This document shows, in pieces, positions 97 through 53,912 of a DNA stretch of 64,000 bases. The notes under the pieces are model-generated. The model saw nothing but the letters and a program-made list of their open reading frames with translations, was not told the DNA's origin and searched no databases. The translations under genes were made by a program, and so were the position numbers. The first letter of the stretch is position 1. Every line of letters starts with the position of its first letter. The DNA comes from an uncultured Candidatus Saccharibacteria bacterium (GTDB lineage: Bacteria > Patescibacteriota > CPR2 > UBA1875 > CAIMLA01): NCBI GenBank assembly GCA_964501135.1, contig CAZCRI010000003.1, positions 18,654 to 82,653 of the forward strand. The letters run 5' to 3'.

Positions 97-236
97 TGAA
101 TACTTTTTGTGACGATAGACAAAAAGTATTACGGAAGTGCCTTGCTTTAGCAAGGAAGGGAAAGCTGTTCTCGATTAACTCAAATAATATTGAGAGAGAT
201 TCCAGCCTTCGCTGGAATGACGGGAGGGTGATAAGT
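97..236 (+). promoter_or_regulatory. Composite upstream element (hairpin H1 100-129, hairpin H2 140-155, hairpin+AATGACGGGAGGG motif 202-228) ahead of topA
   Basis: Perfect 11-bp stem atactttttgt/acaaaaagtat; ccttgc-ttta-gcaagg stem; ccagc-cttc-gctgg followed by aatgacgggaggg. Same module order recurs at 15627-15718 and 21260-21366. Confidence 0.4.
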
Positions 237-3961: not shown

Positions 3962-3980
3962 AGATTAATATACCCCAGGC

Positions 3981-4014
3981 AACATTCTAACATTCTATAG
4001 AATGTTAGAATGTT
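3981..4014. promoter_or_regulatory. Perfect palindrome copy 1: aacattctaacattcta|tagaatgttagaatgtt = (ACATTCTA)x2 then (TAGAATGT)x2; abuts -35 (ttgaca 4016-4021) of ArsR-like gene
   Basis: Exact reverse-complement symmetry read directly; identical 32-bp core at 4327-4358 and 8224-8255. Confidence 0.85.
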
Positions 4015-4052
4015 GTTGACAAGAGTCAGTGTACAAGACGTAAGATAAACCC

Positions 4053-4325
4053 ATGGGGAAATCTCCGAAACAACTAGAACGTTATTGTAAAGGGATAGCA
4101 AATCACCACCGCATCAGCATCCTTAATCTTATTCACGACGAACCGGGAATATGCGTGGAAGACATATCAAAGAAACTGGAGACAAGTTACAAGACTGTGG
4201 CCATTCACACTCAAAAACTAGTCCAAGCAGGGCTAGTAAACAAACGCTATATGGGAAAGGAGATGACGCAGGTACTATCTCCCTACGGCGAAACTTTCTA
4301 CAAATTTCTACAATCAATAAAGTAA
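4053..4325 (+). CDS. ArsR/SmtB-family winged-helix transcriptional regulator (90 aa)
   Basis: HHRISILNLIHDEPGICVEDISKKLETSYKTVAIHTQKLVQAGLV is a typical ArsR HTH; flanked on both sides by the 32-bp palindrome. Confidence 0.75.
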   Translation: MGKSPKQLERYCKGIANHHRISILNLIHDEPGICVEDISKKLETSYKTVAIHTQKLVQAGLVNKRYMGKEMTQVLSPYGETFYKFLQSIK

Positions 4326-4326
4326 T

Positions 4327-4358
4327 ACATTCTAACATTCTATAGAATGTTAGAATGT
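4327..4358. promoter_or_regulatory. Perfect 32-bp palindrome copy 2 (between ArsR-like gene stop and rarA start)
   Basis: acattctaacattctatagaatgttagaatgt exact. Confidence 0.85.
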
Positions 4359-4369
4359 ATATGAGAGAC

Positions 4370-8087: not shown

Positions 8088-8223
8088 TCGGCATCCACTC
8101 ACAACAAGGTCCGCCAGGAGAAGGCAGCCAGACCCTCGACTTTACCCGAAGTCCGAGCCACATCACGCCCCGTAGGACGTTCTCAACTCGAGAGCGCCCT
8201 CCGGGGCGCTTTCATGTAAAAAT

Positions 8224-8255
8224 ACATTCTAACATTCTATAGAATGTTAGAATGT
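8224..8255. promoter_or_regulatory. Perfect 32-bp palindrome copy 3 upstream of high-GC membrane protein gene
   Basis: acattctaacattctatagaatgttagaatgt exact. Confidence 0.85.
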
Positions 8256-8413
8256 TGTGCTGAGTAATAATTAAGCTAAGGACGGTAAACCCCTTTACAA
8301 AGGCGGAAAAGGGGAATATAATCTGGCCGTCGAGATTCTTCGACGCACTTTGACTGGTGCTTATATTCGAAACGTGGCCTGGCGGCCACCAAGACCTAAG
8401 GAGGCTGGGCCTA

Positions 8414-8965
8414 ATGAACCCAACTCTTCGTTTGACATGGCGCCTCGCGCCCTATATGTTCTTCGCCCTCGGCGGACTGCTCCTCGTAGCTCTCGAACTC
8501 ACCGTCCTGATCCTGATCGGTGTTCACGGTCTGGATGCACTCACGGTGATCGGAACCATCTATCTGGCGTACGTCTGCAAGATGATCGTCGAGTACATGG
8601 GTGGCAACGTGATCGTCAACGAGCTTGGCGAACGCAACGGAAAACCGATCAAGGTCTTCCGTCCTGGCAAGAAGAACATTCGCTTTCTGAAGAAGCTTGG
8701 CTGGTATCACGACTTGGGGAACTACTATCCCGTACTCGTGAACCCTCGTGAGGGCAAGTTTAGCCTCACCAAGCATCTCTTCATGCTCGAACCTGGCTCG
8801 GAGAAGTTCTCCGACCAGCTCCTCGAAGTAGCAGCCACCAACGCGGTGGCCTACGAGGAAATCGCAAAGAAGGTCCAGACCAGCAAGTACTGCGCTTCAA
8901 GTGATCTGAGAAAGTTCGAGAAGGCGAATGCCATCTCGGAGTCAATCAAGGATATCGTGAAGTAG
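8414..8965 (+). CDS. Hypothetical membrane protein (2 TM N-terminus + soluble C-terminus), high-GC island gene
   Basis: RBS aaggagg then ATG 8414 (MNPTLRL...); hydrophobic segments FFALGGLLLVALELTVLILIGV. Confidence 0.5.
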   Translation: MNPTLRLTWRLAPYMFFALGGLLLVALELTVLILIGVHGLDALTVIGTIYLAYVCKMIVEYMGGNVIVNELGERNGKPIKVFRPGKKNIRFLKKLGWYHDLGNYYPVLVNPREGKFSLTKHLFMLEPGSEKFSDQLLEVAATNAVAYEEIAKKVQTSKYCASSDLRKFEKANAISESIKDIVK

Positions 8966-9048
8966 AACACAACCAGACTACAGACAACAGACAACACAGA
9001 ACATAGTCTGAGAAGAATAGTGAGTGTCCCACACCAGTCAAAGCGCAG

Positions 9049-9088
9049 GGGGCCGACCGCGAACAGCGGCCGGCCCCTTTGCCGTTTT
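9049..9088 (+). terminator. GC-rich rho-independent terminator
   Basis: ggggccgaccgc-gaaca-gcggccggcccc then tttgccgtttt. Confidence 0.6.
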
Positions 9089-9144
9089 ACCTTGTTTTAA
9101 GCACTACTCAAGAGTAGAATGTGGTTATACCAAGGAGAAATTCT

Positions 9145-11250
9145 ATGTCAAACCTTAACCTTAGTGATAACGAAAAACGAGATATTCAAAAATATCTTAC
9201 AGAAAATAAACTGCTCCCAGATAAATACAGGTTTCTTCTTTTTGATTCGACTCGTGAAGTAGAACTTATATGGAATGGCATGTCAGATGATATTGAGAGT
9301 TCAGTATTGCCATTTCAGACAATTGAGCATATTGATGAGCCACGAGATGAAGAGAAGATAAACTCTCAACAAGTGTTATTTGACACCTCGGGAAAACAAA
9401 TCGAAGGATGGTCAAATAAGCTTATCTGGGGCGATAACAAATTTATAATATCCTCACTTAAGAATGGCCCTCTTAGAAAACAGATTGAAGCAGAAGGCGG
9501 ACTAAAGTTAATCTATATAGACCCACCATTTGATGTCGGAGCTGACTTTTCTATGGAGGTAGAAGTTGGAGAGAATAACAGTAAGAATATCTTTACAAAA
9601 AAGCCATCGGTAATTGAAGAGGTCGCATACCGGGACACATGGGGAAAAGGCGCTGACAGCTTCATCTCAATGATATATGAACGACTGAAATTAATGAATG
9701 ATTTATTATCTGAAGACGGAAGTATTTACATACATTGTGACTCACGCGTAAATAGTTATATTCGTCTAATCCTTGACGAAGTGTTTGGAAGAGAAAACTT
9801 TGTAAATGAAATTGCCTGGTGCTACACGAGTGGCGGTGCTGGTAAAACAGCTTTTTCAAAAAAACATGATACGATATACCTCTATTCGAAGGCCAATAAG
9901 CACATTTTTAACATTCAATACTATAAGCGTTATGCCCTAATTCAAGAAGGGGAAGAAGTAGGTTTTGATCCTAGGATACAGTACTATAAAGATGAAAAGG
10001 GGAGAAGTTATCGTTTAAATCTTACTCTTGACTGGTGGAGCGACATTGGAATTGTTTCACCAAATAGCAACACAGAAAGGACGGACTATCCAACACAAAA
10101 GCCAGAGGGCTTACTTCAGAGAATAATTGAGACTTCATCAAATAAGGGCGATTTAGTAGCCGACTTTTTCTGTGGTTCAGGTACAACATTGGCAGTAGCA
10201 GAAAAACTGGGTCGTAAATGGATTGGTTCTGATCTTGGACGGTTTTCAATTCACACCACTCGTAAACGAATGATTGGCGTGCAACGAGAACTAAAAAATG
10301 CCGGGACAGACTTTAGACCATTTGAGATACTTAATATCGGTAAATACGAGAGGGAAAAGTACCTCGGTATTAACGATAGTTTGCGCGATGAAGAAAAACG
10401 AATGCAAAGAGAAAATAAGGAACGCGAATTTATCAAACTCATTCTTTCAGCCTATAAAGCCGAGGCTGTAAATTCCTTTAATAATTTCGTTGGGAAGAAG
10501 CGAGATAGGCTGGTAGCCGTGGGGTCAATTGATACGCCAGTAACAAATGACTTTCTGGAGAATATAATTATTGAGTGCAAAGAAAAGCATATTACAAAAG
10601 TAGACATTCTCGGATTTGACTATGAAATGGGCCTGGACTTTGAAACAACAAAGAAGCTAGGTATTGATGTTCAGTTTAAGGTCATACCTCGAGAAGTATT
10701 TGATAAAAGAGCAATAGAAAGAGGGCAAGTAAAGTTCTATGATGTTGCTTACATTGAAGTTAAACCCATTATCAAGGGCAGAGGAAATGAAAAAGAGGTA
10801 GCAATTGAACTAACCGACTTTAGCGTTTTTTACAATCAGGATAATACCGGAGAGGTTGAGGAAAAATTACAGGCCGGCGGCAGTAAAATTGTTATTGAAA
10901 ATGGACAGGTTATTAAAATTTTCAAGGATAAACAAAGCGGTATAGTAGAACGTGAAACTCTCACGAAGAAATGGACAGACTGGATTGATTATTGGTCTGT
11001 TGACTTTGAATTTGAAAGCAAGAAAGAACTTATCAACATCGCAGATCCCGCAACTGGTAGGGAGGAAAAGAAGTGGACTGGTAATTACATTTTTGAAAAT
11101 GAATGGCAATCCTTTAGAACTAAAAAAAACAGAAACTTAGAGTTAACATCTGCATATAAAATTACGTCGAAGGGTAAAATGAAAATTGCTATCAAGGTAA
11201 TTGATATTTTCGGTAACGATACCACCAAGGTAATTGAGGTGAATGTATGA
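9145..11250 (+). CDS. mod: Type III restriction-modification methyltransferase (Mod), beta-class N6A/N4C MTase
   Basis: Motif IV DPPF (IYIDPPFDV) precedes motif I FCGSGTT (ADFFCGSGTTLAVAEKLGRKWIGSD) with TRD between, the Type III Mod order; RBS aaggaga before ATG 9145; low GC (~37%). Confidence 0.8.
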   Translation: MSNLNLSDNEKRDIQKYLTENKLLPDKYRFLLFDSTREVELIWNGMSDDIESSVLPFQTIEHIDEPRDEEKINSQQVLFDTSGKQIEGWSNKLIWGDNKFIISSLKNGPLRKQIEAEGGLKLIYIDPPFDVGADFSMEVEVGENNSKNIFTKKPSVIEEVAYRDTWGKGADSFISMIYERLKLMNDLLSEDGSIYIHCDSRVNSYIRLILDEVFGRENFVNEIAWCYTSGGAGKTAFSKKHDTIYLYSKANKHIFNIQYYKRYALIQEGEEVGFDPRIQYYKDEKGRSYRLNLTLDWWSDIGIVSPNSNTERTDYPTQKPEGLLQRIIETSSNKGDLVADFFCGSGTTLAVAEKLGRKWIGSDLGRFSIHTTRKRMIGVQRELKNAGTDFRPFEILNIGKYEREKYLGINDSLRDEEKRMQRENKEREFIKLILSAYKAEAVNSFNNFVGKKRDRLVAVGSIDTPVTNDFLENIIIECKEKHITKVDILGFDYEMGLDFETTKKLGIDVQFKVIPREVFDKRAIERGQVKFYDVAYIEVKPIIKGRGNEKEVAIELTDFSVFYNQDNTGEVEEKLQAGGSKIVIENGQVIKIFKDKQSGIVERETLTKKWTDWIDYWSVDFEFESKKELINIADPATGREEKKWTGNYIFENEWQSFRTKKNRNLELTSAYKITSKGKMKIAIKVIDIFGNDTTKVIEVNV

Positions 11251-11804
11251 GCCAGCAATTCATTCCTTTTAGCCATGAGGACATAGAACTAAAAAATGCC
11301 TTGGTCGGTAAAGCAAGGGAATTAAGGAGCTCTGAAGATCTTGGTGCACAACTTTCATCGGCACTAATTTACGCAAGTATTACTGAGTATTTAGCCGAGA
11401 ACTTGTTAGCCAACTTAAGATACCTTGTTTATCGCTCCTCCTATGTTGACTTTGCCGGAATAATATTTATTGATGAGAGAAAGAAGACAAATAAGGCACA
11501 AAAGCAAACACTCGGAGACTCCAAGAACAACCTTGGAAAATACAGTTTCCCAGATAAGCCAGATATTATGGCGGTATTAGAGGAGATAAATAAATCAAGG
11601 AATAATCTATTCCACAATCTCGCCAAAGTTAAAGAGTCGGAATTGCATAAGATAGATACAGACATCAAATGTATACAGAATAATACAGAAGAATTTATTG
11701 AAAAAGTAAATGTACTTTATGCTGGTTTGCAGAAATTGGTAATACCAGAGGCGCCCCAAGTGCCGACTGATACTAAGGAGGGAAAAGAAAATGGCACTGC
11801 ATAA
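11247..11804 (+). CDS. Hypothetical 185-aa protein inserted between mod and res (overlaps both)
   Basis: ATGA overlap with mod stop and 14-nt overlap with res start; no motif recognised. Confidence 0.6.
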   Translation: MSQQFIPFSHEDIELKNALVGKARELRSSEDLGAQLSSALIYASITEYLAENLLANLRYLVYRSSYVDFAGIIFIDERKKTNKAQKQTLGDSKNNLGKYSFPDKPDIMAVLEEINKSRNNLFHNLAKVKESELHKIDTDIKCIQNNTEEFIEKVNVLYAGLQKLVIPEAPQVPTDTKEGKENGTA

Positions 11805-14472
11805 AGATTTTCCTAAGGACAAATTTCAAATACTCGACCCAGCGATTAGATGGTTTCCGGCTGAGGAGGATTTACGTAAGGATGGCTACGAAAAACTCCT
11901 GCCGCCTTTCGTACCTGAGTTAAGGGAAAGAGTAGCGGAGTGGCGTAAGGATCACTATGAGGGTGCTAGTAAGACCTCAAAGGCACTTCTAAGCTGGTGG
12001 TTTAAGGAGCCCCATACTATTTATGGCAAAGATGGTACAAGTATAGCTTTTCAATACTATTTTGCACAAAGAGAAGCCGTAGAAACAATCATCTGGTTAT
12101 ATGAAACGGAAAAAGTAGAGGGTAAATACGATTTAATAAAGTTTGACAAACTGGGACGGGTCAGTCCTAATATGTTTAGTGAAGAGTGGCTACGCTTTGT
12201 TATTAAGATGGCAACAGGTAGTGGCAAGACAAAAGTTATGAGTTTGCTTCTCGCCTGGTCTTACTTTCACAAGCTTTATGAAGAAGGGTCCCAGCTTTCC
12301 AAGAACTTCTTGCTCATAACGCCAAATATCATTGTTCTAGACAGGATTAAAAATGACTTTGTAGGTCTCAAGATATTCTACGAAGACCCAATTCTCCCAG
12401 ACAATGGCTACCATGGTCAAAACTGGCAAGATGATTTTCAGTTAAAGCTTCATCTACAGGATGAGGTTGGTGCTATTTCTAAATCTGGAAACATCTTTCT
12501 AACAAACATACACAGAGTGTATGAAGGAAGCATCAACGAGGCTAGTGCTGATGATGTTGATGTATCAAATTATTTTATGGGCAGTAAGGTGACAGGCAAA
12601 ACTAATGACTCAAAGGTAGATTTGGGTGAAATAGTAAGAGATATTGATGAGCTTATGATAATCAATGATGAAGCGCATCATATCCATGATCCGAATATGG
12701 CTTGGTCAAAGTCAATTGAAGATATTCATAACAAACTTCTACAAAAAGGTGGCAAACTTGCCTTGCAAATTGATGTTACCGCGACGCCAAAAAACAATCG
12801 TGGAGAGATTTTTGTTCAGACCGTAACTGACTACCCACTGGTTGAGGCCATCCACCAGGGTGTTGTCAAAAATCCAGTTTTGCCAGATCTTGCTAGCCAG
12901 GCAAAGTTACAAGAAAAACAAAGCTCAATTTTTTCTGAAAAGTATGAAGACTACATCCGACTTGGTGTAGAAGAGTGGGCCAAAACCTATAAAGAACTTG
13001 AACCGACAGGCAAGAAATCGATCTTGTTCATAATGACTGACGATACCAAGAACTGTGATGACGTAGCTGAGTTTTTAGAGAGGAGCTACGCACAACTCAA
13101 AGGGGCTGTTTTAACAATTCACACTAACCAAAGTGGTGAAATATCAGAGACAGTCTCAGGGAAGAAAGAAAAAGAATTACAAGAACTTCGTAAAAAGGCA
13201 AATGAGATAGATAGTCTTGAGAGTCCGTATAGGGTTATCGTTTCGGTACTTATGCTAAAAGAAGGTTGGGATGTAAAGAACGTAACAACTATCGTGGGGT
13301 TGCGACCATATGGTTCAGACTCAAAAATTCTCCCCGAACAAACTCTCGGTCGCGGTCTTCGTAGAATGTATTTTGGACAAGATGTTGAGGAATACGTGAG
13401 CGTCATCGGTACACCTGCATTTATGGAGTTTGTAGAGTCAATCAAGGCTGAAGGTGTTGAGTTAGAAAAGAGAAGAATGGATCGTTCAGGCACTCCGATT
13501 ACACCGACTGTTATTGAGGTTGATACCGCAAATGTCAAAAAGGATATTGATAATCTAGATATTGAGCTGCCAGTTCTTACTCCGAGAATACAGAGAGAAT
13601 ACAAAAATCTGAATCTTTTGAGTGTTGATAAATTCAAACACAAAAGAATCAAAATAAAACAGTTCTCAGAGGAAGAGAAAAAAGAGATTGTTTTCAAGGA
13701 AATAATTGAAGACAAGTTACATCATACAACAGTCCTGAATAGTTCTATTGAACCTAACTATCAAAGTGTAGTTGGATTCTTTGTTCAACGAATTATGAAA
13801 GAACTAAGGTTGTTCGGTTGCTACGATATACTTTTTGGTAAAGTAAAGGTGTTTATAACTCACGACTTATTTGAAAAGGAAGTTGATCTAAACGACTCCA
13901 ATATTCTGAGAAACCTGTCTGAATTAGAGGCAGTCAAAACAATAGTTGAGACATTCAAAAAGGAAATAAATGACCTGACAGTACAGGATGTTGGTGATAC
14001 TGAAATAAAGAATTATCTCAAAGTAAGTAGCGCGAGACCTTTCGTTGTTACTGATGCTAAATATCTTCTACCGAAGAAAAGCGTATTCAATAAGATAGTT
14101 GGAGATAGTGATTTTGAGCTGGAATTTGCAGATTTTCTTGAGAGAGCTGATGATGTTATTTCATTTGCGAAGAACTACCTAGAAATTCACTTCAAGATTG
14201 ACTATAAAAATGCAAGCGGAGCAATTTCCAGCTATTACCCAGATTTCTTTGTCAAAACAGATAATAAGACGGTCTATATTGTAGAAACTAAGGGACGAGA
14301 AGATCTAGACGATATAGAGAAAATTAAGAGATTGGCACAATGGTGTGAAGACGCAACTGAAAGACAAAAGAAGATAGAATACAAGATGCTTTACGTGAAG
14401 CAAGACGAATGGGAGAGATATAGACCAAGTAAATTCACCGAGTTGATTACTAGTATTGGAATGAAGCCATGA
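11791..14472 (+). CDS. res: Type III restriction enzyme Res subunit (SF2 helicase + C-terminal PD-(D/E)xK nuclease)
   Basis: Walker A MATGSGKTKVM, DEAH box IINDEAHHIHD, helicase motif VI-like region, C-terminal YYPDFFV...VYIVETKGRED nuclease motif. Confidence 0.8.
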   Translation: MALHKDFPKDKFQILDPAIRWFPAEEDLRKDGYEKLLPPFVPELRERVAEWRKDHYEGASKTSKALLSWWFKEPHTIYGKDGTSIAFQYYFAQREAVETIIWLYETEKVEGKYDLIKFDKLGRVSPNMFSEEWLRFVIKMATGSGKTKVMSLLLAWSYFHKLYEEGSQLSKNFLLITPNIIVLDRIKNDFVGLKIFYEDPILPDNGYHGQNWQDDFQLKLHLQDEVGAISKSGNIFLTNIHRVYEGSINEASADDVDVSNYFMGSKVTGKTNDSKVDLGEIVRDIDELMIINDEAHHIHDPNMAWSKSIEDIHNKLLQKGGKLALQIDVTATPKNNRGEIFVQTVTDYPLVEAIHQGVVKNPVLPDLASQAKLQEKQSSIFSEKYEDYIRLGVEEWAKTYKELEPTGKKSILFIMTDDTKNCDDVAEFLERSYAQLKGAVLTIHTNQSGEISETVSGKKEKELQELRKKANEIDSLESPYRVIVSVLMLKEGWDVKNVTTIVGLRPYGSDSKILPEQTLGRGLRRMYFGQDVEEYVSVIGTPAFMEFVESIKAEGVELEKRRMDRSGTPITPTVIEVDTANVKKDIDNLDIELPVLTPRIQREYKNLNLLSVDKFKHKRIKIKQFSEEEKKEIVFKEIIEDKLHHTTVLNSSIEPNYQSVVGFFVQRIMKELRLFGCYDILFGKVKVFITHDLFEKEVDLNDSNILRNLSELEAVKTIVETFKKEINDLTVQDVGDTEIKNYLKVSSARPFVVTDAKYLLPKKSVFNKIVGDSDFELEFADFLERADDVISFAKNYLEIHFKIDYKNASGAISSYYPDFFVKTDNKTVYIVETKGREDLDDIEKIKRLAQWCEDATERQKKIEYKMLYVKQDEWERYRPSKFTELITSIGMKP

Positions 14473-15317
14473 ACTGGACTCCCATAATTGAAGCCGTCTA
14501 TACCGCACTCCGTGTCGGGGCTATCATCCTGCCGCTATTTTTGGTTGTTGACTTTCTAAACCACAAATATGGAAACGACATCGAGAATATTCTACGCAAG
14601 TCCCGCAAGTTCATGCCTATCGTCGGCGCCCTCCTCGGCATCTTACCGGGATGCAACGTGGCGGTAGTTACGGCCATCTTCTTTACTGAGGGCATTGCCT
14701 CACTGGGAACCTTGGTCGCGGTACTTATCGCCAAATCGGACGAAGCGCTTTACGTATTCTTACCCCTAGGGTTCAAGTCTTTCTTACCGATATTACTCGC
14801 TAAGCTAGTACTAGCTATTCTTGCTGGATATCTCATAGATTTCCTACCAAAGATGAAAATGCGCGCTGCCAAACTAGAAACCGATATCGAATTCTGCTGC
14901 GCCCAGCATCCACACCACGACGGTAGAAAAGGGGAGATCGTCCACGCCATCAAGCACACCGTTCGTGTAATGCTGATCGTTTTTGTTACCCTAGCACTCT
15001 TCAACTACGTCCAAGATACCTACGGCACCGGTTTCCTGACTGATTTCTTTGGTCACATACGAATACTAGAGCCGATTATTGCCGCCTTTGCCGGACTAAT
15101 ACCGGGCTGTGGCACCAGTATCGCTATCGCAACACTATATGTACAAAAAGTGATTACCTTTGGCGCTGCGGTTGCAGGCCTCTCCACAGCGAGTGGGGAA
15201 GTGTTTGTCGTTCTGGCTGCACGCGGAGTAAAACCAAAGTATCTAGTAACGATTGCGGCGATACTAGTAATCATCAGCTCCATAGCTGGCATTGCGCTTG
15301 ATTTAATCATCAAATAA
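14469..15317 (+). CDS. Integral membrane protein with internal duplication (two LPGC(N/G) motifs), putative permease; translationally coupled to res
   Basis: ATGA overlap with res stop; ~8 hydrophobic helices; ILPGCNVAV and LIPGCGTSIA repeats. Confidence 0.6.
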   Translation: MNWTPIIEAVYTALRVGAIILPLFLVVDFLNHKYGNDIENILRKSRKFMPIVGALLGILPGCNVAVVTAIFFTEGIASLGTLVAVLIAKSDEALYVFLPLGFKSFLPILLAKLVLAILAGYLIDFLPKMKMRAAKLETDIEFCCAQHPHHDGRKGEIVHAIKHTVRVMLIVFVTLALFNYVQDTYGTGFLTDFFGHIRILEPIIAAFAGLIPGCGTSIAIATLYVQKVITFGAAVAGLSTASGEVFVVLAARGVKPKYLVTIAAILVIISSIAGIALDLIIK

Positions 15318-15339
15318 GCACTAATTATTTTTACATTTA

Positions 15340-15508
15340 CCACTTTTGGCAGCAAAAGTGGTGCAAAACTGCCGACTCCTTGCAAAATCGCAAGTGTTGC
15401 TTCTAACTCACTCGTTCTTAAATGACAAAACTCGTAATGCTCAAACATTGTCTTTTAAGATGCTCGCTCGGGTCGTCGCGCGCTGTATTTTGCAGGTCGC
15501 GGAAAGAA
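15340..15508 (+). repeat. ~170-bp repeat R1 (conserved ends, variable middle); inverted partner at 21073-21254
   Basis: ccacttttggcagcaaaagtgg hairpin, tgcaaaactgccgactccttgcaaaatcgc and ctcgggtcgtcgc.cgctgtattttgcaggtcgcggaaagaa shared with reverse complement of 21073-21254. Confidence 0.8.
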
Positions 15509-15626
15509 GAGTGACCTTAAACTCTCATGGATTTGTCTAATTCAGTACACTAACTCTGATTTAAGTTGATGCTGAATAGCCACTGCGAAGGTCCGCAGAC
15601 CGCCGCATTTATAATGTCTTTTTGGA

Positions 15627-15718
15627 TACTTTTGTGACTACGGACAAAAGTATCGGCTAAGCCTTGCTTTAGCAAGGCAAAGAAGAATAGTTTGCTTTAC
15701 CATGGTCGCAATGCAGCA
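15627..15718 (+). promoter_or_regulatory. H1-H2-M composite element copy B (H1 15627-15654, H2 15662-15679, degenerate M ~15701-15718)
   Basis: atacttttgt-gactacgg-acaaaagtat (stem shortened on both arms relative to copy at 100-129, i.e. compensatory); gccttgctttagcaaggc. Confidence 0.45.
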
Positions 15719-15751
15719 CAAGACATACTATTTAAATGTGTTATAAAATCG

Positions 15752-15780
15752 TTGACGTACCACGCCTTTTGTGCTATAAT
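15752..15780 (+). promoter_or_regulatory. Promoter TTGACG-N17-TATAAT for gene 15791
   Basis: ttgacg 15752-15757, spacer 17, tataat 15775-15780. Confidence 0.5.
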
Positions 15781-15790
15781 TGCACTGTAA

Positions 15791-16873
15791 ATGAAAACAG
15801 CAAACCCACAAAAAACAAATATGAAGGGCCAAAAACTCGACGTAAATGCAGAAGTTGAGTTTATTTTTGCTGCTCCAAAGCTAAAAAAAGAGCGCGACCA
15901 AGCTGTCATTACTGATCGCTTTGGGCTTACTGGAGCCAAACCAAAGACCCTAGAGGAAATTGGTAAGGCCCTGGGGATTACCCGTGAGCGCGTGCGACAG
16001 ATCGAGAAAAATACCCTCAAGAAGCTCTCTGACTTTGTTGCTACCGACCTGAGAGGTCAGGAGATTTCTTCGGTTATTCTGGGCGCTATCAAGAGCGAAG
16101 GCGGCGTAGTCCGTGCCACAACCCTAGATAACGACATCCTCGGTGAGAACGCCAGTGCCAAGGCCAAGCACCAGCTTAGCTTTATCGTGGCCTGCTCTAC
16201 CGACATTTCACTATACACAGAGAGCAATCACGCTCATCGCAGCTACTTCATGGCGCCTCTTGCCTCACCAGTAATTGATAAGGTGCTAAAAGAAGCCGTT
16301 TCTATCCTAAAGAGTGAAGATAAGCCAGTAGAAGAGAAGGCACTAGTTGCGAAGATTCGCAAAGCTGTCTCGGATCTAGAGCCCAAGACTATTGTCGCTA
16401 TCATCGCTATCAGTAAGGTAATATTGCGTACTGAGTCGGGTCACCTCGGTCTCTCTCATTGGCGCGACATCAACCCAAAGAGCATCAAGGACAAGACCTA
16501 TTACATTCTAAAGAAACACAACAAGCCACTGCACTATACCGACATCGCTGATCACATTCAGAACTTTGGCGGTAAAGAGAAACATGTCACCAAGCAAGCG
16601 GTACACAACGAGTTGATTCGTGACGAACGTTTTGTCCTGATTGGCCGTGGTATCTACGCACTCTCTGAGTGGGGATACGCCTCTGGTGTTGTTGAGGAAG
16701 TAATCGAAACCGTCCTGATCGAGGCCGGACGCCCAATGCACAAAGACGACATTATCGATGAAGTTCTAAAGCGTCGCATGGTAAAAGAAACAACTATTTT
16801 ACTAAATCTACAAAAAAAGCGCTTCAAAAGGGTAGCGAGAGCAACGTATACTGTATCTAACGGGAGGGAATAA
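15791..16873 (+). CDS. Sigma-70 region-4 (HTH) domain protein with ~280-aa C-terminal extension
   Basis: [27 protein letters not shown] matches the sigma-70 region 4.2 signature; the remainder is unrecognised. Confidence 0.6.
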
Positions 16874-19800
16874 GTGCTGATTCAAGATATTAGCCTGGCG
16901 ATACTCGGCGGAATGTGGTCCGTCGTGGTTTGGACATGGTGGATAGTAGTGCCGATACTTGGCTACTTCACCTGGAAGAACTACAAAAAAGCAGAGTATG
17001 TTGAGGCGATTGAAACAGTCGTTCTCTCGATTAAAATCCCTAAGAATAACGAAAAAGGTCCGATAGCTGCCGAGATGATGCTAGCGGCGCTTCATGGTAT
17101 CTTGCATCCAAAAAGCCAGCAAAAGAAGGGGACTAGTGTACAAGAGCACCTGAGTTTCGAGATTGTCTCGACCCTCAATGCGATTGAATTCTTTGTTTGG
17201 GTACCGACACACCTAAAGGACTTCGTAGAAGGCCAGGTATACGCCCAGTATCCAACCGCCGAGATTACTACTGTTAGTGACTATTCACTCGATATCGATA
17301 TTGACGATGATAAAGTAGACGACGCCGTCGTCGGCACCGAGCTGGTACTGACGAAGGACGAGATTTATCCGATCAAGACCTTTCTGAACTTTGACGTCGA
17401 CCCACTGGCCGGCATTACAGGTATGCTTTCGAAAATTGAGCAAAAGAGTGAACAGGTCTGGATTCAGATTCTCGCCAAGCCTGTCGATGACGAATGGCGT
17501 GATGGCTCACTAGGGCACATTGCGAGCAAAAAGGGTGGGGCTGGCAGTGCTGATACCTGGGTGCATAAGCTAATCGATATTTTGATTATGCCCCTGCAGG
17601 TAATACCATACATGATCAATGCGATCATTTCGCCAATGACACCAGAACAGAAGAAGAAGCAGGAAGAAAAAGAGAAGAAGGAGAAGGAGAAGAAGGAGAA
17701 GGAAGCTCCGAAGCTCTCTCATTCTGAAGAAACTGAACTCTCTGCGATCGAAGAGAAGGCCAATAAGCTTGGGTACAAAGTAATTATCCGTATCTGTTAC
17801 CTCGCCAAAAGCCCTGAGAAAGCCAAGGAGCGCATCCAGGCCGTGATTGGTGCCTTCAAACAATTCAATACTACTAACCTCAATGGTTTTCAGGGGAGCG
17901 GCCTCTACACCGGACAAGACTTCTTGGACGCTTACCGTGCTCGTCTTTTCAATAATCACGGCTACACTCTAAATATCGAGGAACTCGCGAGCCTCTACCA
18001 CTTACCACACGTTTCAGTAGAAACCCCGAATATCCTCTGGACCTCATCTAAAAAGGGCGAGCCACCAAGCAGCTTGCACATTATTGACTCCGAAGACACT
18101 GTCGATAAAGAGCTCACACCGATGGGAACCACTACCTTCCGTAACGGACAGCGTACCTTTGGTATCACTAGAGACGACCGCCGTAGACATATGTACATCA
18201 TCGGTAAGAGTGGTGTCGGTAAATCACGTATGATGGCAAATCTTGCTATCAACGACATCATTAATGGTGAGGGTGTCGCCGTAGTCGACCCACATGGTGA
18301 GCTTATCGAGCTGATCATGAAATACATTCCAAAGGAACGTATCGACGACGTGATTTATCTGAACCCAGCTGACAAAGATTTTCCGATTGGTTTTAATCCC
18401 CTGGAATCTCCAGAGGGAATGCGTGAAGAGACCGCCAAGGGCTTTATCTCGGTACTCAAACGTATGTTTGGGTATTCGTGGGGTCCTCGTTTGGAATACG
18501 TCCTAAACCACACTGTACTGGCTCTCTCTGAGGTAGAAGGCTCAACGATGCTCGGCATCGTCCGTCTCCTGACCGACAAGGGCTATCGCAAGCGCATCGT
18601 CGAGCAAGTTACCGACCCGGTAGTGCAGATGTTCTGGCTCAAGGAATTCTCGACCTATAACGACAAGATGGCCACCGAAACTGTAGCTCCTATCCTAAAC
18701 AAGGTAGGACAATTTACGGCTTCGGCGATAATTCGTAACATCGTCGGCCAGCCGAAGAGTAGTATCGACTTTTCGGAAATAATGAATACCGGAAAGATAC
18801 TTCTCGTGGACCTCTCTACCGGTAAGATAGGGGAGGTAAACTCCGAACTGCTGGGCTCCCTGATCATTACCAAGCTGCAGCTTGCTGCGATGCAACGTGC
18901 CTACATCCCCGAGGAAGAGCGCAAAGACTTCTACCTCTACGTCGACGAATTCCAGAACTTTGCTACTGACTCCTTTGCGACGATTCTCTCAGAAGCCCGT
19001 AAGTATCGCTTGTCCCTCTGCGTGGCCAATCAGTACATTGCTCAGATGGAAGAAACTGTACGCGACGCTGTCTTTGGTAACGTCGGTACTCTCGTCTCTT
19101 TCCGCGTTGGCGCCACTGATGCCTCTTACCTCGAGAAAGAGTTTGAACCAGTATTTACCCAGAACGACCTGATCAACCTCGATAACCGACACATGTATCT
19201 AAATATGCTGATCAACGGCGTTACGAGTATACCTTTCTCAGCGATGTCCCTAAATACACCAGAGATGAAAGAAGATTGCTCGGCGATTGTAAAGGCCGTC
19301 TCGCGCGAGAAATACGGCAAGAAGCGTGAACTGGTCGAGGATGAGGTAAAACACTGGTACAACGTGGACTCAGTAGTTGCTGGTATCAACGCCAACGAGA
19401 AGGACGACCCAATTGTGACCAAACCAAAGCCTACCATTGTTCGTGAAAAATCTGAGCAGGGGAGTACCCCTAGCCAGCCACTACGAGAAAAGAAAGAAAC
19501 TAATATTAATCCCCCTGCCAGCAAGACCACCGAGAGTCCAAAGAAGAGTGACCTTCAGCTCGCCATAATTGCAAATACTAAAAAATCTGGGAAAGCAGCC
19601 GACAAACCTATGACCGAGAAACAAAAAGTAATCGCCGAGCTCGAGAAGAGTGCGGACTACATCGTGCGCCACAAGGACAAGGACGACAAGTACGTCTTTT
19701 TGCCAAACCACAAACCAGAAGGAGTGATTCCTGACAAGCGTGGCCGCCAAAAGGGCAACAACTACAAGAAGAATGGCCAAAAGATCTACGAAGTAAAGAT

Positions 19801-20449
19801 TAGTATGTACGAACCCAAAGAACATGATCTCTTTGGCGATGGTCGTGCTCCTGATGTCTGGGTAGGTACGGCTGCAGAAATGATCGACCAGTTACAGGCT
19901 ATCGGTGCTGGCCTAGGTGGTGGCAGCAAATTCCTCGGCGTCGAGGACCACACAGATACTCCCGCTATCCTAGAAGCGCTCCTTGCAAAGCAGAAAACCG
20001 CATCTACAGAGAAGGCTCGTGAGACGATTGCGGATAAAATCGGGGTAGATACACTATCTAGCCTCAAGAAGGCCGTCAGCGTGCCCGAAAAACCCGTAGA
20101 AGCGGTCAAGGAACCTACTCCAGAGGCAGTAAAAGAAGAAACCAAAACCCCTGAGGTCGAGGTGGCTCCTGAAAAGCCAGCTGCACCCGAGAAAACTGAA
20201 ATAAAAGAAACAACAAAACCCAAAGAACCCGTAGCTGCCGAACCAGTAGGGAAGAGCCTCGAAGAGATCAAGGACGTCCTGCTCTCTGTCTCCCATCCTA
20301 AAGAGCACCCTATTTACCGTGAAAAGGTCGAGAAGCAGATCACCCCAGAGGACTTTCATAACCTTAAAACAATTGAGCCACACGAACGAATCAGGGTGGT
20401 GACCAAAGAACTGAAGCCAGGGGAGACAGTTCACCTAACAAAACCATAA
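16874..20449 (+). CDS. Membrane-anchored VirD4/TraD-like (type IV coupling protein family) P-loop ATPase with long K/E/P-rich C-terminal tail
   Basis: N-terminal TM helices; Walker A IIGKSGVGKSRMMAN and DPHGE (HerA/DUF87-like); FYLYVDEFQNFAT (TraG-D_C type Walker B); low-complexity KEKKEKEKKEKE and PEKP repeats. Confidence 0.65.
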   Translation: MLIQDISLAILGGMWSVVVWTWWIVVPILGYFTWKNYKKAEYVEAIETVVLSIKIPKNNEKGPIAAEMMLAALHGILHPKSQQKKGTSVQEHLSFEIVSTLNAIEFFVWVPTHLKDFVEGQVYAQYPTAEITTVSDYSLDIDIDDDKVDDAVVGTELVLTKDEIYPIKTFLNFDVDPLAGITGMLSKIEQKSEQVWIQILAKPVDDEWRDGSLGHIASKKGGAGSADTWVHKLIDILIMPLQVIPYMINAIISPMTPEQKKKQEEKEKKEKEKKEKEAPKLSHSEETELSAIEEKANKLGYKVIIRICYLAKSPEKAKERIQAVIGAFKQFNTTNLNGFQGSGLYTGQDFLDAYRARLFNNHGYTLNIEELASLYHLPHVSVETPNILWTSSKKGEPPSSLHIIDSEDTVDKELTPMGTTTFRNGQRTFGITRDDRRRHMYIIGKSGVGKSRMMANLAINDIINGEGVAVVDPHGELIELIMKYIPKERIDDVIYLNPADKDFPIGFNPLESPEGMREETAKGFISVLKRMFGYSWGPRLEYVLNHTVLALSEVEGSTMLGIVRLLTDKGYRKRIVEQVTDPVVQMFWLKEFSTYNDKMATETVAPILNKVGQFTASAIIRNIVGQPKSSIDFSEIMNTGKILLVDLSTGKIGEVNSELLGSLIITKLQLAAMQRAYIPEEERKDFYLYVDEFQNFATDSFATILSEARKYRLSLCVANQYIAQMEETVRDAVFGNVGTLVSFRVGATDASYLEKEFEPVFTQNDLINLDNRHMYLNMLINGVTSIPFSAMSLNTPEMKEDCSAIVKAVSREKYGKKRELVEDEVKHWYNVDSVVAGINANEKDDPIVTKPKPTIVREKSEQGSTPSQPLREKKETNINPPASKTTESPKKSDLQLAIIANTKKSGKAADKPMTEKQKVIAELEKSADYIVRHKDKDDKYVFLPNHKPEGVIPDKRGRQKGNNYKKNGQKIYEVKISMYEPKEHDLFGDGRAPDVWVGTAAEMIDQLQAIGAGLGGGSKFLGVEDHTDTPAILEALLAKQKTASTEKARETIADKIGVDTLSSLKKAVSVPEKPVEAVKEPTPEAVKEETKTPEVEVAPEKPAAPEKTEIKETTKPKEPVAAEPVGKSLEEIKDVLLSVSHPKEHPIYREKVEKQITPEDFHNLKTIEPHERIRVVTKELKPGETVHLTKP

Positions 20450-20470
20450 TTTGCAACTGATGCAATCTTT

Positions 20471-20499
20471 ACAGCCCATACCAAATGGGCTGTAATTTT
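20471..20499 (+). terminator. Rho-independent terminator after 1191-aa gene
   Basis: acagcccat-accaa-atgggctgt then aattttg. Confidence 0.6.
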
Positions 20500-21072
20500 G
20501 GCTAAAACAGGCCCGAGCCGGGAGGCCTAATATTTAGGAATATTTAGATATATATCAAAACAAGGGGGTCTACGCTGAGGGAGCGGAAGGTCCCGGAGAA
20601 AAGATATATTATGAGTATTTACTTAGTTTCTTTGCTGCTTACTGGCCTGTCATCTCGGCGATTGATATTGTGTCGCACAATATATCTTGGACGACATTGC
20701 GCATTCTGAGATTCCCGGGTGTAGTTGGTCATCCAAAAGGAGTTTTAAACGTACATTTTCCCTATATATAGGCACAAACCGCGGGTCTAGCTTCCCAAAT
20801 TTGGGCCGCTTGGTCTGGTCAATATGATTTGTAGAACCTGTAAAAGACAGCCAAATAATCTGGCTGGAATCTGACGATCATTTGCAATTAATACTTAGTT
20901 TCCGCTCGCCTACCAAGAGTTTGAAACGAGACTGAATAAGATAATAATTAATTAACATTTAATATAATATTAGTTAATTCTTTTGCTCACTTGCCCACTC
21001 CCCCAGGTCTCCCCCAATAATCGGAAAATAGATTGCCGCGTCACTACGCTCCTCGCAATGACGTAGGGGTGT

Positions 21073-21254
21073 TTCTTTCCGCGACCTGCAAAATACAGCG
21101 AGCGACGACCCGAGTGACTATCATAAAAAATAATGTTTGACCCCGACGCTACCGTCGGGAGAGTTTTGCTTTTTATGAAGGAACGAAGTAGGAGTGACAC
21201 TAGCGATTTTGCAAGGAGTCGGCAGTTTTGCACCACTTTTGCTGTCAAAAGTGG
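21073..21254 (-). repeat. Repeat R2, inverted copy of R1
   Basis: Ends near-identical to R1 in reverse complement; middle ~80 bp diverged. Confidence 0.8.
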
Positions 21255-21259
21255 TAAGG

Positions 21260-21366
21260 ATTTGTGACTACGGACAAAATTACTAACGTGTTGAGAAAGA
21301 GATCCTGAAACAAGTTCAGGATGGCGTGTAGGTGAGATTGCCGCGCTTCGCTCGCAATGACGAGGG
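21260..21366 (+). promoter_or_regulatory. H1-H2-M composite element copy C (H1 21260-21280, H2 21302-21322, M 21343-21366)
   Basis: atttgt-gactacgg-acaaaat; atcctgaa-acaag-ttcaggat; gcgcttcgctcgcaatgacgaggg. Confidence 0.4.
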
Positions 21367-21453
21367 CTATGGACGAGATTCCTCCACTACCTACTCGTGC
21401 CGAGGCTAGTTCGGGCTGGCTGGCTTGCGACCAGGAATGACAGAAGAATAGGA

Positions 21454-32083: not shown

Positions 32084-33349
32084 TCAATCACTTTGAGGTG
32101 CCGGATTTAAGACTACTGAAGATTTCTGCACTACTGGGTTTGTGCCTTCATTCAGTCTCTCGTCTAATTCTGAAATAACCTCGCCAATTTGTTCAATGAC
32201 ACCAACAACAAGAGCATTCCCCATACAAAAAAATCTGAATTTCTCAGGCATACCAGTATTTGTCCAGTTGGCTGGAAACCCATTTATCTTTTCCGCCTCA
32301 ACAGGAGTTAATGTTCTAATCCCGTCTTTATCCTCTACGTAATGAGTACTACGATTAATGCTCGACTCCGAGGTCAACATTGTTCTAGCTGGCCTTGTAG
32401 CGGGGTCTGGGAAAACAACTGTCCCTTCTGCATAGTTATAAGTAAATCCATCCTTAGTTGTTCTTACTTCCCTTTTCCCCTCTTTGGTTTTTTTTGCGGC
32501 TGCCAACTGAGAATCCGAGAGGTAATAACGTTCATCAGCGCCTTTTTCAAGAATATCACCCAGCAACGCACGCTTTCCAAAATATACAGGTTCATAGTCT
32601 GACATTTTAACAACTCCAGAAATCATTGAACCAATATTTAGAAACTTCCCAGAATCGTACTTCTCGGAGACTGAAAAAGTATCAGAGAACCTAGCCATAT
32701 CAAAAATGACTTCTTTGCCTTTTAGCTTGTAATTAAACTTACCCTTATAGAGGTGATCTTCTGATAATTCAAAATTACCTCCACTATGTAATTTCAAATT
32801 TCGTTTATAGGCAAAAATGTAAACCCTTCGTCTTCTTTGTACGAAGCCGTAGTCAGCCGCGTTAACAACCATCCACTGAACATCATAACCATTCTTATCA
32901 AGAGACTTCAGAACAATCGCAAAATCTCTTCCTCGCTGTGAGGATGGTGATTTCAATAGCCTATCCACATTTTCCAACAAGATGTATTTTGGATTTCTTT
33001 TTGAAATAATTTTATCAATTTCCCACCAGAGGACGCCCTTTTTCCCTTGAATTCCAGCAGCTTTCGTTCTGGCTACCGAATAATCCTGACAAGGAAATCC
33101 CCCTACCAATAAATCATGCTTTGGCGGATTTTGTGCCAATACCGCGATGTCTTCGTTACTATGGAAGTCCTCTCTAAAGTTCTGTTGATAGCAATCAAAT
33201 GCGTGTTGAGACTTTTTACCTGGCTCCCATTGATTGGCCAAAATTGTCTCAAAAGAGCTACTGGCTGCCTCCAGACCAAGTCGAAAACCACCTACACCCG
33301 CGAAAAGCTCTAATACCTTAATTTTATTGTCTGATTTATTTTTATTCAT
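32084..33349 (-). CDS. DNA (cytosine-5)-methyltransferase
   Basis: Motif I FAGVGGF, motif IV GGFPCQDYS, ENV motif (LLENV). Confidence 0.9.
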   Translation of the reverse strand: MNKNKSDNKIKVLELFAGVGGFRLGLEAASSSFETILANQWEPGKKSQHAFDCYQQNFREDFHSNEDIAVLAQNPPKHDLLVGGFPCQDYSVARTKAAGIQGKKGVLWWEIDKIISKRNPKYILLENVDRLLKSPSSQRGRDFAIVLKSLDKNGYDVQWMVVNAADYGFVQRRRRVYIFAYKRNLKLHSGGNFELSEDHLYKGKFNYKLKGKEVIFDMARFSDTFSVSEKYDSGKFLNIGSMISGVVKMSDYEPVYFGKRALLGDILEKGADERYYLSDSQLAAAKKTKEGKREVRTTKDGFTYNYAEGTVVFPDPATRPARTMLTSESSINRSTHYVEDKDGIRTLTPVEAEKINGFPANWTNTGMPEKFRFFCMGNALVVGVIEQIGEVISELDERLNEGTNPVVQKSSVVLNPAPQSD

Positions 33350-33421
33350 AATTTATCTGTTACTATTATAAGTGTAACAAAGGTTCAAGTAAAGATCAAT
33401 CTTTAAAGAATGGAGTAAAAC

Positions 33422-34036
33422 ATGGAATATACTGTTTATTCACATCGCCACGGGTTAGCTGTAGCGCTTTCAGAGGAAGATAATCGAAGGCTCTGGACTG
33501 AGATTCTCGAATCGCTCGACTCTATAAGCGAGGAGGATATTATTAACTCTTTTCAAAACACCGCCAGAAAGACCAAGAGCATTTCCGATACGATAAACAA
33601 GCTTATTGACGAGCGCATGGTGGCAAAGAACTGGCATAGACAAAGTGAAATATTCAAAGACTCACATTACAAGAGTGAATCATACCGCCTAGATTTTGCA
33701 AAAGGAAACTATTCAGTAGAGGTCGCCTTTAATCACTCACAAGTCGCCCCGTGGAATCTAATAAAACCCGTACTAGCAAGTGAGCTTAATCACGTTGAGA
33801 AAGAAATTCAAACAGACATCGGGGTCATAATCTGTGCAACTCACGACATGCAGAAAGCCGGCGGATTTGATAATGCCATCGGAACGGCAGAAAAATACCT
33901 TGGCCTACTAAAGCCAATGTACAATATGCTAACCACTCCTACCATCATAATTGCCCTAGAGAAACCCAAATCTTTCAAAATAGCCCAAACAAAAAACAAC
34001 ATTCAAAGGTTTGATGCTGTTATTGAAAGAATTTAA
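33422..34036 (+). CDS. Putative Type II restriction endonuclease (divergent partner of the C5-MTase)
   Basis: Divergently transcribed 72 bp from the MTase start; possible D...E-x-E-like segment RLDFAKGNYSVEVAF; family not recognised. Confidence 0.35.
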   Translation: MEYTVYSHRHGLAVALSEEDNRRLWTEILESLDSISEEDIINSFQNTARKTKSISDTINKLIDERMVAKNWHRQSEIFKDSHYKSESYRLDFAKGNYSVEVAFNHSQVAPWNLIKPVLASELNHVEKEIQTDIGVIICATHDMQKAGGFDNAIGTAEKYLGLLKPMYNMLTTPTIIIALEKPKSFKIAQTKNNIQRFDAVIERI

Positions 34037-34477: not shown

Positions 34478-34551
34478 TGGCAGGGGCGGAAGGAATCGAA
34501 CCCTCAATAAAGGTTTTGGAGACCTTCGTTATACCGTTTAACTACGCCCCT
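34478..34551 (-). tRNA. tRNA-Trp (anticodon CCA)
   Basis: Cloverleaf parsed by hand: acceptor aggggcg/cgcccct, anticodon stem aaggt/acctt, loop ctCCAaa, T-loop ttcgatt, 3' CCA encoded. Confidence 0.85.
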
Positions 34552-34577
34552 TCAAAGCCCACTTCGGGGCTTACATA

Positions 34578-34748
34578 TTATTTAGTTTCTTTGTGCAGTG
34601 TGTGAACGTGTTCGCGCTTACAGAACTTCTTGATTTCCAAGCGAGCTGTAGTGTTACGAGTGTTTTTTGTAGTAGCGTAATTACGCTCCTTACATTCAGT
34701 ACACTCAAGTGTAATCACTGGACGAATGTCTTTTTTCTTAGTTGCCAT
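34578..34748 (-). CDS. rpmG: 50S ribosomal protein L33
   Basis: [32 protein letters not shown]...; only the C-terminal 56 codons of ORF-track entry 34578-35006 are real. Confidence 0.9.
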
Positions 34749-34768
34749 TTGATCTCCTAATCTTTCTA

Positions 34769-34844
34769 TGGAGCCCACCACCAGGATTGAACTGGTGACC
34801 TCATCCTTACCATGGATGCGCTCTACCGACTGAGCTAGGTGGGC
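34769..34844 (-). tRNA. tRNA-Thr (anticodon GGT)
   Basis: Acceptor gcccacc/ggtgggc, D-arm agctcagtcggtagagc, anticodon stem catcc/ggatg with loop atGGTaa, T-loop ttcaatc, CCA encoded. Confidence 0.85.
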
Positions 34845-34870
34845 GCAAATCGGCTTAATAATAATTAATA

Positions 34871-34956
34871 TGGTGGGGAGTGAGGGATTCGAACCCCCGA
34901 AGGCGTATGCCAACAGATTTACAGTCTGCTCCGTTTGACCGCTTCGGTAACTCCCC
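34871..34956 (-). tRNA. tRNA-Tyr (anticodon GTA), type II with long variable arm
   Basis: Acceptor ggggagt/actcccc, anticodon loop ctGTAaa, long variable arm, T-loop ttcgaatcc, CCA encoded; 86 nt. Confidence 0.85.
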
Positions 34957-35161
34957 ACGTCGTCGGAATCCGCTAACGTATTTTGATGCCACCGCTTCAG
35001 TAGCACCTATCTACTTTCGCGATTCCTCCTCTTTCGACAAAACCCAGGTTTTGTCGAGTAACCATCGAAAAGCGTTAGATTTTCGATGGAAAGGAAGAAT
35101 AACGAGAAGCCAAAGTGGTTTTATTTTGTAAAACTGCGACGGCTGTCAGTTTATTCTGACG

Positions 35162-35236
35162 TGGAGCCGCCTGTCGGACTTGAACCGACGACCGACTGTT
35201 TACAAAACAGTTGCTCTACCACTGAGCTAAGGCGGC
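35162..35236 (-). tRNA. tRNA-Thr (anticodon TGT)
   Basis: Acceptor gccgcct/aggcggc, D-arm agctcagtggtagagc, anticodon stem actgt/acagt with loop ttTGTaa, T-loop ttcaagtcc, CCA encoded. Confidence 0.8.
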
Positions 35237-53700: not shown

Positions 53701-53820
53701 TGTTCATCCTTTTTACTCAATAAAATACTTTTCGACAGACAAACAGTTTCTGCGGGCGTTCGTGCAGACTTGTTCATCCCCCGATGGTTTTTTGCGAATA
53801 TATCTTTTTACGCAAGAACA

Positions 53821-53849: not shown

Positions 53850-53863
53850 CTATTTTGGTCGAC

Positions 53864-53892: not shown

Positions 53893-53912
53893 GGTCGTCG
53901 ACGTTGACGCGT

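Follow-up and report, generated by a model that had tools for sequence, protein, structure and literature searches.

The 64,000-nt stretch of DNA analysed here (the window), from contig CAZCRI010000003.1 of an uncultured Candidatus Saccharibacteria bacterium, is chromosomal DNA of a member of the Patescibacteria (candidate phyla radiation, CPR). It contains two copies, R1 and R2, of a structured intergenic element of ~175 nt, designated R, which lie in inverted orientation on either side of a pair of genes encoding a sigma-r4 domain protein and a VirD4-like ATPase. The reading that we favour, with moderate confidence, is that R is a functional, folded and non-coding element of a new family, most likely an RNA, with R2 representing the ancestral copy and R1 a copy located at the border of a genomic island. 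Judging from the comparisons described below, R appears to be kept by purifying selection and to be restricted to a narrow clade of Patescibacteria.

R1 occupies positions 15337–15512 and R2, inverted relative to R1, positions 21069–21260, both as delimited by repeat search, blastn and a covariance model (match for R1 at 15334–15512, 212 bits; match for R2, 199.9 bits). An inverted-repeat search of the window identified the arm pairs 15337–15433/21161–21257 (97 nt, 86% identical) and 15441–15508/21073–21140 (68 nt, 90% identical), and full-length blastn of R1 against R2 yielded one alignment of 185 columns with 79% identity including gaps (E 5e-45); the inverted pair reported in the initial annotation is thus borne out by both searches. 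When the indel is left out, the identity is 85% overall, 92–95% in the end blocks and 73% in the centre. The centre, which had been described as ~80 bp of diverged sequence, is the least similar part, but its divergence was overstated, as it is still 73% identical and forms a conserved hairpin. The two copies have in common a perfect terminal hairpin, CCACTTTTG-GCAG-CAAAAGTGG, located by sequence and fold at 15339–15362 in R1 (ACCACTTTTG-GCAG-CAAAAGTGGT) and at 21232–21255 in R2. This hairpin and the conserved 3′ block are present as originally noted. The end of R1 bearing the perfect hairpin points to the stop codon of the arsP_2 gene at a distance of 22 nt. The difference in length between R1 and R2 is accounted for by a single 13-nt insertion in R2, which lies within a GC-rich mini-hairpin (CCCGACG-CTAC-CGTCGGG) placed by alignment and fold at the tip of the R2 central stem (21142–21159); the insertion is specific to R2 and is missing from R1 and from the copies in two relatives, L005 and L016. 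No third copy was found within the 64-kb window by blastn or by the covariance model with filters off.

The covariance model was built from three copies and run on the window and on all loci fetched from relatives, which cover ~200 kb in partly overlapping pieces. Four full copies were identified in all the sequence fetched, namely R1, R2, L005:11825–12004 and L016:10706–10884, and partial copies were also matched at contig ends. All five copies considered here (the four full ones and a partial one in L021, Logan ERR3839025) adjoin one and the same gene pair, and neither the rest of the ~200 kb from relatives nor the remaining 58 kb of the window gave a further match to R. The copies have sharp boundaries, and their flanks are unrelated to one another except for those of R2 and the L016 copy. 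L016 (GCA_041738615.1) is the closest relative, with ~82% DNA identity across the locus, and its copy is the orthologue of R2, sharing colinear flanks, the same flanking hairpins and the same orientation. R1 is missing in L016, where a Zip transporter gene stands before the sigma-r4 gene. In L005 (74% amino acid identity), one R is found in the spacer equivalent to that of R2, between colinear flanking motifs and in the opposite orientation, and the spacer equivalent to that of R1 is occupied by another element, S (described below). These copies in L005 and L016 are the outcome of a search for R-like sequences in relatives that the initial annotation had proposed.

L007, L012 and L018 (60–71% identity) carry nothing at the R2 site, the ftsQ stop codon directly abutting an AT-rich conserved motif, and R is therefore read as an insertion acquired within a narrow clade. 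L007 and L012–L014 contain no R, and no copy was found with the covariance model in the partial loci L009 (GCA_964511435.1) and L018. Searches of large sequence collections were negative: a metagenome contig collection contained 0 matches to either an invariant 21-mer or a degenerate 22-mer, exact-block scans gave 0 matches in a viral contig collection, R1 had no match among plasmids and phages by blastn in distant mode, and the whole segment had no match among plasmids by megablast. A scan of genome contigs with the 3′ 20-mer returned four chance matches only and is uninformative, since the L005 and L016 copies differ within that 20-mer. As regards the partial copy, the L021 contig ends inside R2 (L021:2151–2196) and apparently derives from the same strain as the window (267 nt identical by eye). 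A break of the assembler at the R1/R2 repeat is expected behaviour and fits this contig end. Repeats of this kind are thus of practical interest in that they break assemblies, as in L021, and mark the borders of defence islands.

The conservation of R was compared with that of neutral sites. Between the window and L016, identity is 59–63% at third codon positions and 61% in alignable, neutral-looking spacer, as against 91% in R2. In comparisons of either the window or L016 with L005, third codon positions are 49–52% and second positions 83–88% identical, and R is 87–91% identical, with a 66-nt block of R reaching 97% in the L005 comparison. A block of 42 nt (CAGCAAAAGTGGTGCAAAACTGCCGACTCCTTGCAAAATCGC) is invariant in all four copies. 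R1 is the outlier of the set: its overall identity to the other three copies is 82–85%, and that of its centre 71–73%. At one end, R1 and R2 have derived bases in common, a hint of intragenomic gene conversion. To judge from these identities, the pattern must be due either to purifying selection or to recent transfer. For the pair formed by R2 and the L016 copy, selection would be the simpler reading, because this pair sits in orthologous flanks that are less conserved.

In its predicted shape, R consists of a perfect 10-bp terminal hairpin and a rod of ~150 nt, which is closed by a GCAAAAU/AUUUUGC helix and contains an irregular internal zone and a long central hairpin with a variable tip. 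This hairpin-plus-rod fold is predicted on both strands for R1, R2 and the L016 copy and only on the strand matching the R1 plus strand for the L005 copy. The RNA fold z-scores are −2.1 (plus strand) and −2.2 (minus strand) for R1 and −3.9 for R2. In the four-copy alignment, the central helix comprises 18 pairs, 5 of which have changed on both sides and 3 of which show compatible one-sided changes, and 94% of the cells are paired. As controls, slid versions of the helix gave 0 double changes, and the observed measures were matched in 2–10 of 500 shuffles. Structural covariation, for which a check had been suggested at the outset, is seen in the form of compensatory changes in the central helix. 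Against Rfam 15, only four tRNAs in the window reach the gathering threshold, and cmscan at E<=10 over both R regions gave nothing credible and no 6S family. The possibility that R is a small protein gene was rejected: a frame is open in all copies, but indels of 1 nt and 13 nt displace it; synonymous variation is missing from the invariant 42-nt block; and the open reading frames (ORFs) have no Pfam match.

On the basis of these patterns, the following history and mode of action may be proposed. R2 would be ancestral, having been inserted into the spacer that separates the dcw (division and cell wall) operon from the VirD4-like gene, with which it is convergent. R1 would be a paralogue that is older or has evolved faster, located where a laterally acquired island with restriction-modification and arsP_2 genes has its right edge. 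The inverted arrangement of the two copies around the two core genes would be incidental. R would work as a folded nucleic acid, most likely RNA, either as a self-contained small RNA or as a module on neighbouring transcripts, and its function would rest on the conserved end blocks and on a central stem that stays paired, whichever way the element faces its neighbouring genes. Independence of orientation is seen in the L005 copy, which is flipped at the equivalent of the R2 site between colinear flanks. The analysis shows that R exists, where its limits lie, how its copies are distributed and conserved, that pairing is compensated, that a coding signal is missing and that the bracketed segment is not mobile; transcription of R, its functional strand and its molecular role are points that we infer. 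The initial annotation had offered paralogous structured RNAs with a variable domain as one of two explanations; this is compatible with the covarying central hairpin and with the conservation, R being a putative RNA.

Several points weigh against this interpretation. The alignment consists of four sequences, and most of the compensatory changes split R1 from the other three, so that few independent events are represented. The G-U pairs of the closing helix fit only the R1 plus strand, and those of the outer central stem only the other strand. A promoter scan found no conserved promoter next to either end of R, and a scan beside R found no canonical terminator, the terminal hairpin being without a U-tail. 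High similarity between genomes could also stem from a mobile element having spread horizontally in recent times, and not from selection.

Patescibacteria have tiny genomes, from which unselected DNA is normally lost. Because its 175 nt are 87–91% identical where synonymous sites are saturated, and this in such small genomes, R can credibly be proposed as a functional RNA or as a structure recognised by a protein. To our knowledge, non-coding RNAs and repeat elements of the Patescibacteria are almost uncharted, and a search of the literature on CPR repeats, structured RNAs or 6S RNA found nothing relevant. R is best filed as a new family of bacterial structured intergenic repeats or candidate small RNAs, and it would be a useful seed for a covariance model once further genomes of the clade exist. 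A more far-reaching proposal, which we put forward only tentatively, is that R, and possibly S, represent an undescribed class of small structured RNAs specific to this lineage of Patescibacteria. According to this proposal, R might be a self-contained RNA gene of ~180 nt composed of a rod and a terminal hairpin, possibly akin to 6S RNA, and selection on it might be as strong as that on second codon positions; it might function in both orientations, a single duplication might have occurred in this genome, and the gene might adjoin the probable replication terminus.

The alternative that survives best, although we regard it as rather doubtful, is that R is a non-autonomous mobile repeat, i.e. 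a miniature inverted-repeat transposable element (MITE) or a repeat of the ERIC, REPIN or insertion sequence (IS) IS200/IS605-PATE type, mobilised in trans by a transposase whose gene lies at another site. The similarity between genomes would then reflect recent spread, and the structure would represent hairpins recognised by the transposase and not an RNA function. Such a history would agree with R being an insertion relative to the more distant relatives, with the opposite orientations of R in the same spacer of L005 and of the window and L016, with the position of R1 exactly at the edge of a variable island, with the contig of the same-strain assembly (L021) breaking inside R2, and with spacers that are full of further small palindromic repeats (H, X and S elements). 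The structure of the ends can be read in the same way, since subterminal hairpins lie near both of them and TTAC precedes the hairpin end in 4/4 copies. However, the two hairpins are unlike each other in sequence, and TTAC may belong to the element itself. R has no terminal inverted repeats of its own: neither of its ends, TTCTTTCCGCGACC... and ...CAAAAGTGGTAA, is the reverse complement of the other, and they have only an internal 7-nt TGCAAAA in common. No direct repeat that could represent a target-site duplication is shared by the flanks of any of the four copies. The copy number is low and bound to the locus, the two copies in the 64 kb of the window belonging to a single locus; a Pfam scan of ~37 ORFs of the window revealed no transposase, and the metagenome, viral, plasmid and phage collections held no exact-block match. 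In addition, R2 and the L016 copy lie in orthologous flanks and are yet far better conserved than these flanks.

Comparison with known repeats does not place R in any one family. The ERIC/IRU elements of Enterobacteriaceae and Vibrio are imperfect palindromes of ~127 bp. Like R, they are intergenic, occur in either orientation with discrete boundaries, are long imperfect palindromes that fold into a rod, acquire insertions at the tip, are present in low to moderate copy number and are highly conserved across genera with compensatory changes. R differs from them in having no sequence similarity, in belonging to another phylum, in being longer, in carrying an extra perfect terminal hairpin and in being known so far from no more than one or two copies tied to the locus; moreover, R shows no evident TA target duplication of the kind reported for ERIC. 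By analogy, the enterobacterial ERIC nevertheless seems the closest counterpart of R. The MITEs known as Correia/NEMIS (Neisseria) and RUP (Streptococcus) are likewise small, non-coding and structured and are inserted in spacers, where they can occupy the 3′ ends of genes and alter transcripts. Unlike these MITEs, R has no clean terminal inverted repeats or target-site duplications, and no parent IS or transposase was identified. The IS200/IS605-derived PATEs and the REP/REPIN elements share with R the subterminal hairpins at both ends, the lack of terminal inverted repeats and target duplications, and a conserved TTAC at or immediately outside the hairpin end (4/4 copies of R). In R, however, the end hairpins are unrelated in sequence and the copy number is very low, and the window contains no TnpA, RAYT, TnpB or Y1 gene. 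Taken as likenesses, R thus resembles ERIC in behaviour and 6S RNA in predicted shape and is without the defining features of a classical MITE. A functional element and a mobile repeat also overlap as explanations, and ERIC, by analogy, shows the same ambiguity.

A more specific form of the RNA interpretation, which we consider unlikely, is that R is a 6S-like RNA, a rod with a central bubble that sequesters the RNA polymerase holoenzyme, present here as two paralogues. Bacillus has two 6S paralogues, 6S-1 and 6S-2. R and 6S RNA (RF00013 and related families) are alike in length (~180 nt), in the predicted rod (for R, a closing stem, an irregular zone of ~15 × 15 nt and a long terminal stem), in the conserved flanks of the bubble and in a covarying stem. 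In R, conservation peaks in the end blocks, which make up the closing stem and border the internal zone, and covariation is seen in the terminal stem; independence of orientation would also suit a self-contained gene. Set against this, R matches no 6S covariance model of Rfam even at E<=10 and carries an additional terminal hairpin foreign to 6S, and no promoter was found beside it. Moreover, its distribution is narrow and its presence at the locus variable, the element being missing from the locus in relatives at 60–71% amino acid identity. The bubble is predicted only, is partly paired in some folds, and varies in openness between copies and strands.

It is very improbable that R is instead a protein-bound DNA element of the replication terminus, such as a polar fork barrier or an accessory Xer site. 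An invariant dif-like palindrome (20669–20698), flanked by R1 and R2 in mutually inverted orientation, is located where gene orientation converges and nucleotide skews change sign, and a function at the DNA level would explain the lack of strand preference. L016 and L005, however, carry single copies in opposite orientations, more distant relatives keep the dif-like site without R, and known Ter and Xer sites measure 23–30 bp and are not folded units of 175 bp.

The other explanation offered in the initial annotation, in which R1 and R2 would form the terminal inverted repeats of a mobile or invertible segment (5.9 kb), can hardly be upheld: although inverted repeats of 175–190 bp with 85% identity flank the segment and would physically allow homologous recombination, this reading is contradicted by the constant synteny of core genes that have thousands of orthologues, by the closest relative L016 and likewise L005 having a single R, and by the lack of a recombinase in Pfam scans of the window ORFs. 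The L005-type spacer is identical across four samples, which is uninformative on inversion beyond showing no variation.

The two bracketed genes are both encoded on the plus strand. The first (15791–16873; identified by Pfam, homology and synteny) encodes a protein with Sigma70_r4 and HARE-HTH domains, and the second (16874–20449; Pfam and orthologue annotation) a VirD4/TrwB-like ATPase, which is assigned to the DUF8128 family in relatives. According to precomputed Pfam annotation of orthologues, the VirD4-like gene is always paired with the sigma-r4/HARE-HTH gene. Among the candidate homologues of the first gene that were scored, 7998 of 8000 pass E<=0.001; their sources, few of which are named, include Patescibacteria, Saccharimonadales and candidate division WS5. 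The dcw cluster (ftsQ, murG, ftsW and mraY) is located to the right of R2 on the minus strand and is followed by the genes for ribosomal proteins L11 and L1 (by homology to L016) and, further right in the window, by nusG, the S10 ribosomal protein operon and the gene for EF-Tu. The gene pair has one order and orientation beside ftsQ-murG-ftsW-mraY in L005, L007, L012–L014 and L016; it is colinear in L009 and L010 as well, where the contigs stop short of ftsQ. No alternative orientation or location of the segment, nor its absence, was seen in the loci of relatives examined, and no recombinase, integrase or transposase was found among the ~37 ORFs of the window scanned with Pfam. Because it consists of core genes in constant synteny, with no recombinase among the scanned ORFs, the 5.5-kb segment is ordinary core chromosome and not a cassette. 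In practical terms, a false lead is thereby removed, in that the sigma-r4/VirD4-like pair is neither a mobile nor a phase-variable cassette. A near-consensus promoter with a TG motif (TTGACG-17 nt-TATAAT, 15752–15790) ends only 11 nt short of the ATG annotated for the sigma-r4 gene and is kept in L005, L012 and L016; if this promoter is used, the sigma-r4 mRNA would be leaderless or nearly so.

The non-coding tract between the VirD4-like stop codon and R2 (20450–21068), delimited by inspection and comparison with relatives, had been given as ~950 bp. Such a tract exists, but the distance from the stop codon to R2 is 623 nt; the whole spacer from the VirD4-like stop to ftsQ is 1004 nt long and has conserved elements of its own. 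The tract contains, as features that are not part of R, a terminator-like hairpin (20469–20495), an invariant dif-like palindrome (20669–20698) and an AT-rich conserved motif (20949–21015). In the spacer between the VirD4-like gene and ftsQ, the 24-nt core of the dif-like sequence, TGTGTCGCACAATATATCTTGGACGACATT, is unchanged in 6/6 relatives. The sequence forms an imperfect palindrome of 11+6+11 nt, is unique in the window and matches the dif site of Escherichia coli at ~16 of 28 positions (by eye). The site sits where gene orientation converges and both the GC and the AT skew switch sign. The palindrome is a candidate dif site, for the resolution of chromosome dimers, at the replication terminus.

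A variable island of ~7.3 kb (8216–15520, plus strand; identified by Pfam, alignment to L016 and GC content) stands in place of the Zip gene of L016, and R1 is located exactly at its right edge. The GC content is 38–39% over 10–14 kb. The island contains a type III-like restriction-modification system, composed of an N6/N4 methylase (9121–11250) and a ResIII helicase fused to a TnsA-like endonuclease domain (11791–14472), together with arsP_2 (14469–15317). L005 carries another restriction-modification system, with MvaI/BcnI and a C5 methylase, at the island site. A perfect palindrome of 32–36 nt, ACATTCTAACATTCTATAGAATGTTAGAATGT, occurs three times in the window (3980–4015, 4325–4360 and 8224–8258), one copy being located at the left border of the island. 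A second restriction-modification pair is found at 32084–34036 in a region of reduced GC content (~40%), beside a cluster of tRNA genes (34481–35236), and consists of a C5 cytosine methylase (32084–33349, minus strand) and a BglII-like endonuclease (33422–34036, plus strand).

The element S, which occupies the R1-equivalent spacer of L005, is a second family of structured repeats of ~145 nt, with no Rfam match at E<=10. Copies were identified at 54854–55003 of the window (plus strand), at L005:6351–6489 and 12050–12187, and at 9718–9856 of L012 and L013; further copies lie at L014:1–97 and at L009:3669–3726, the latter comprising the 3′ module only. The closing helix of S is rich in A and U and is accompanied by internal hairpins, a linker with the conserved sequence TTTTCTTGAACTTT and a terminal hairpin that covaries. 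The element is kept across relatives at 60% amino acid identity and is often located upstream of the sigma-r4 gene. Homology between S and R was considered and rejected, as a MAFFT alignment was unconvincing and an nhmmer profile of S found no match in R; the two are alike only in architecture and in the terminal hairpin. The copy of S in the window lies in a gap of ~1.56 kb (53701–55259) inside the S10 operon, between rpsJ (55260–55607) and rplC (53077–53700). This gap also holds REP-like hairpins and two overlapping ORFs without Pfam match (53835–54443, plus strand; 54270–54800, minus strand).

The REP-like hairpins form a family with the arrangement GAGATT-stem-loop-stem-AATGACG and variable stems, and are clustered in long spacers (197–225, 21030–21063, 21296–21328, 21334–21362, 21419–21444, 55013–55042 and 55139–55168). 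Compared with L016, several of them have been added between R2 and ftsQ. Another hairpin, H (GATACTTTTGT-GACTACGG-ACAAAAGTATC), is present three times in the window (99–130, 15625–15654 and 21261–21282). In L016, H is found beside the R copy and upstream of the sigma-r4 gene; in that genome it stands ~10 nt or less after the ftsQ stop codon. The stem of H resembles the terminal hairpins of R and S, which suggests that these elements may share a hairpin module.

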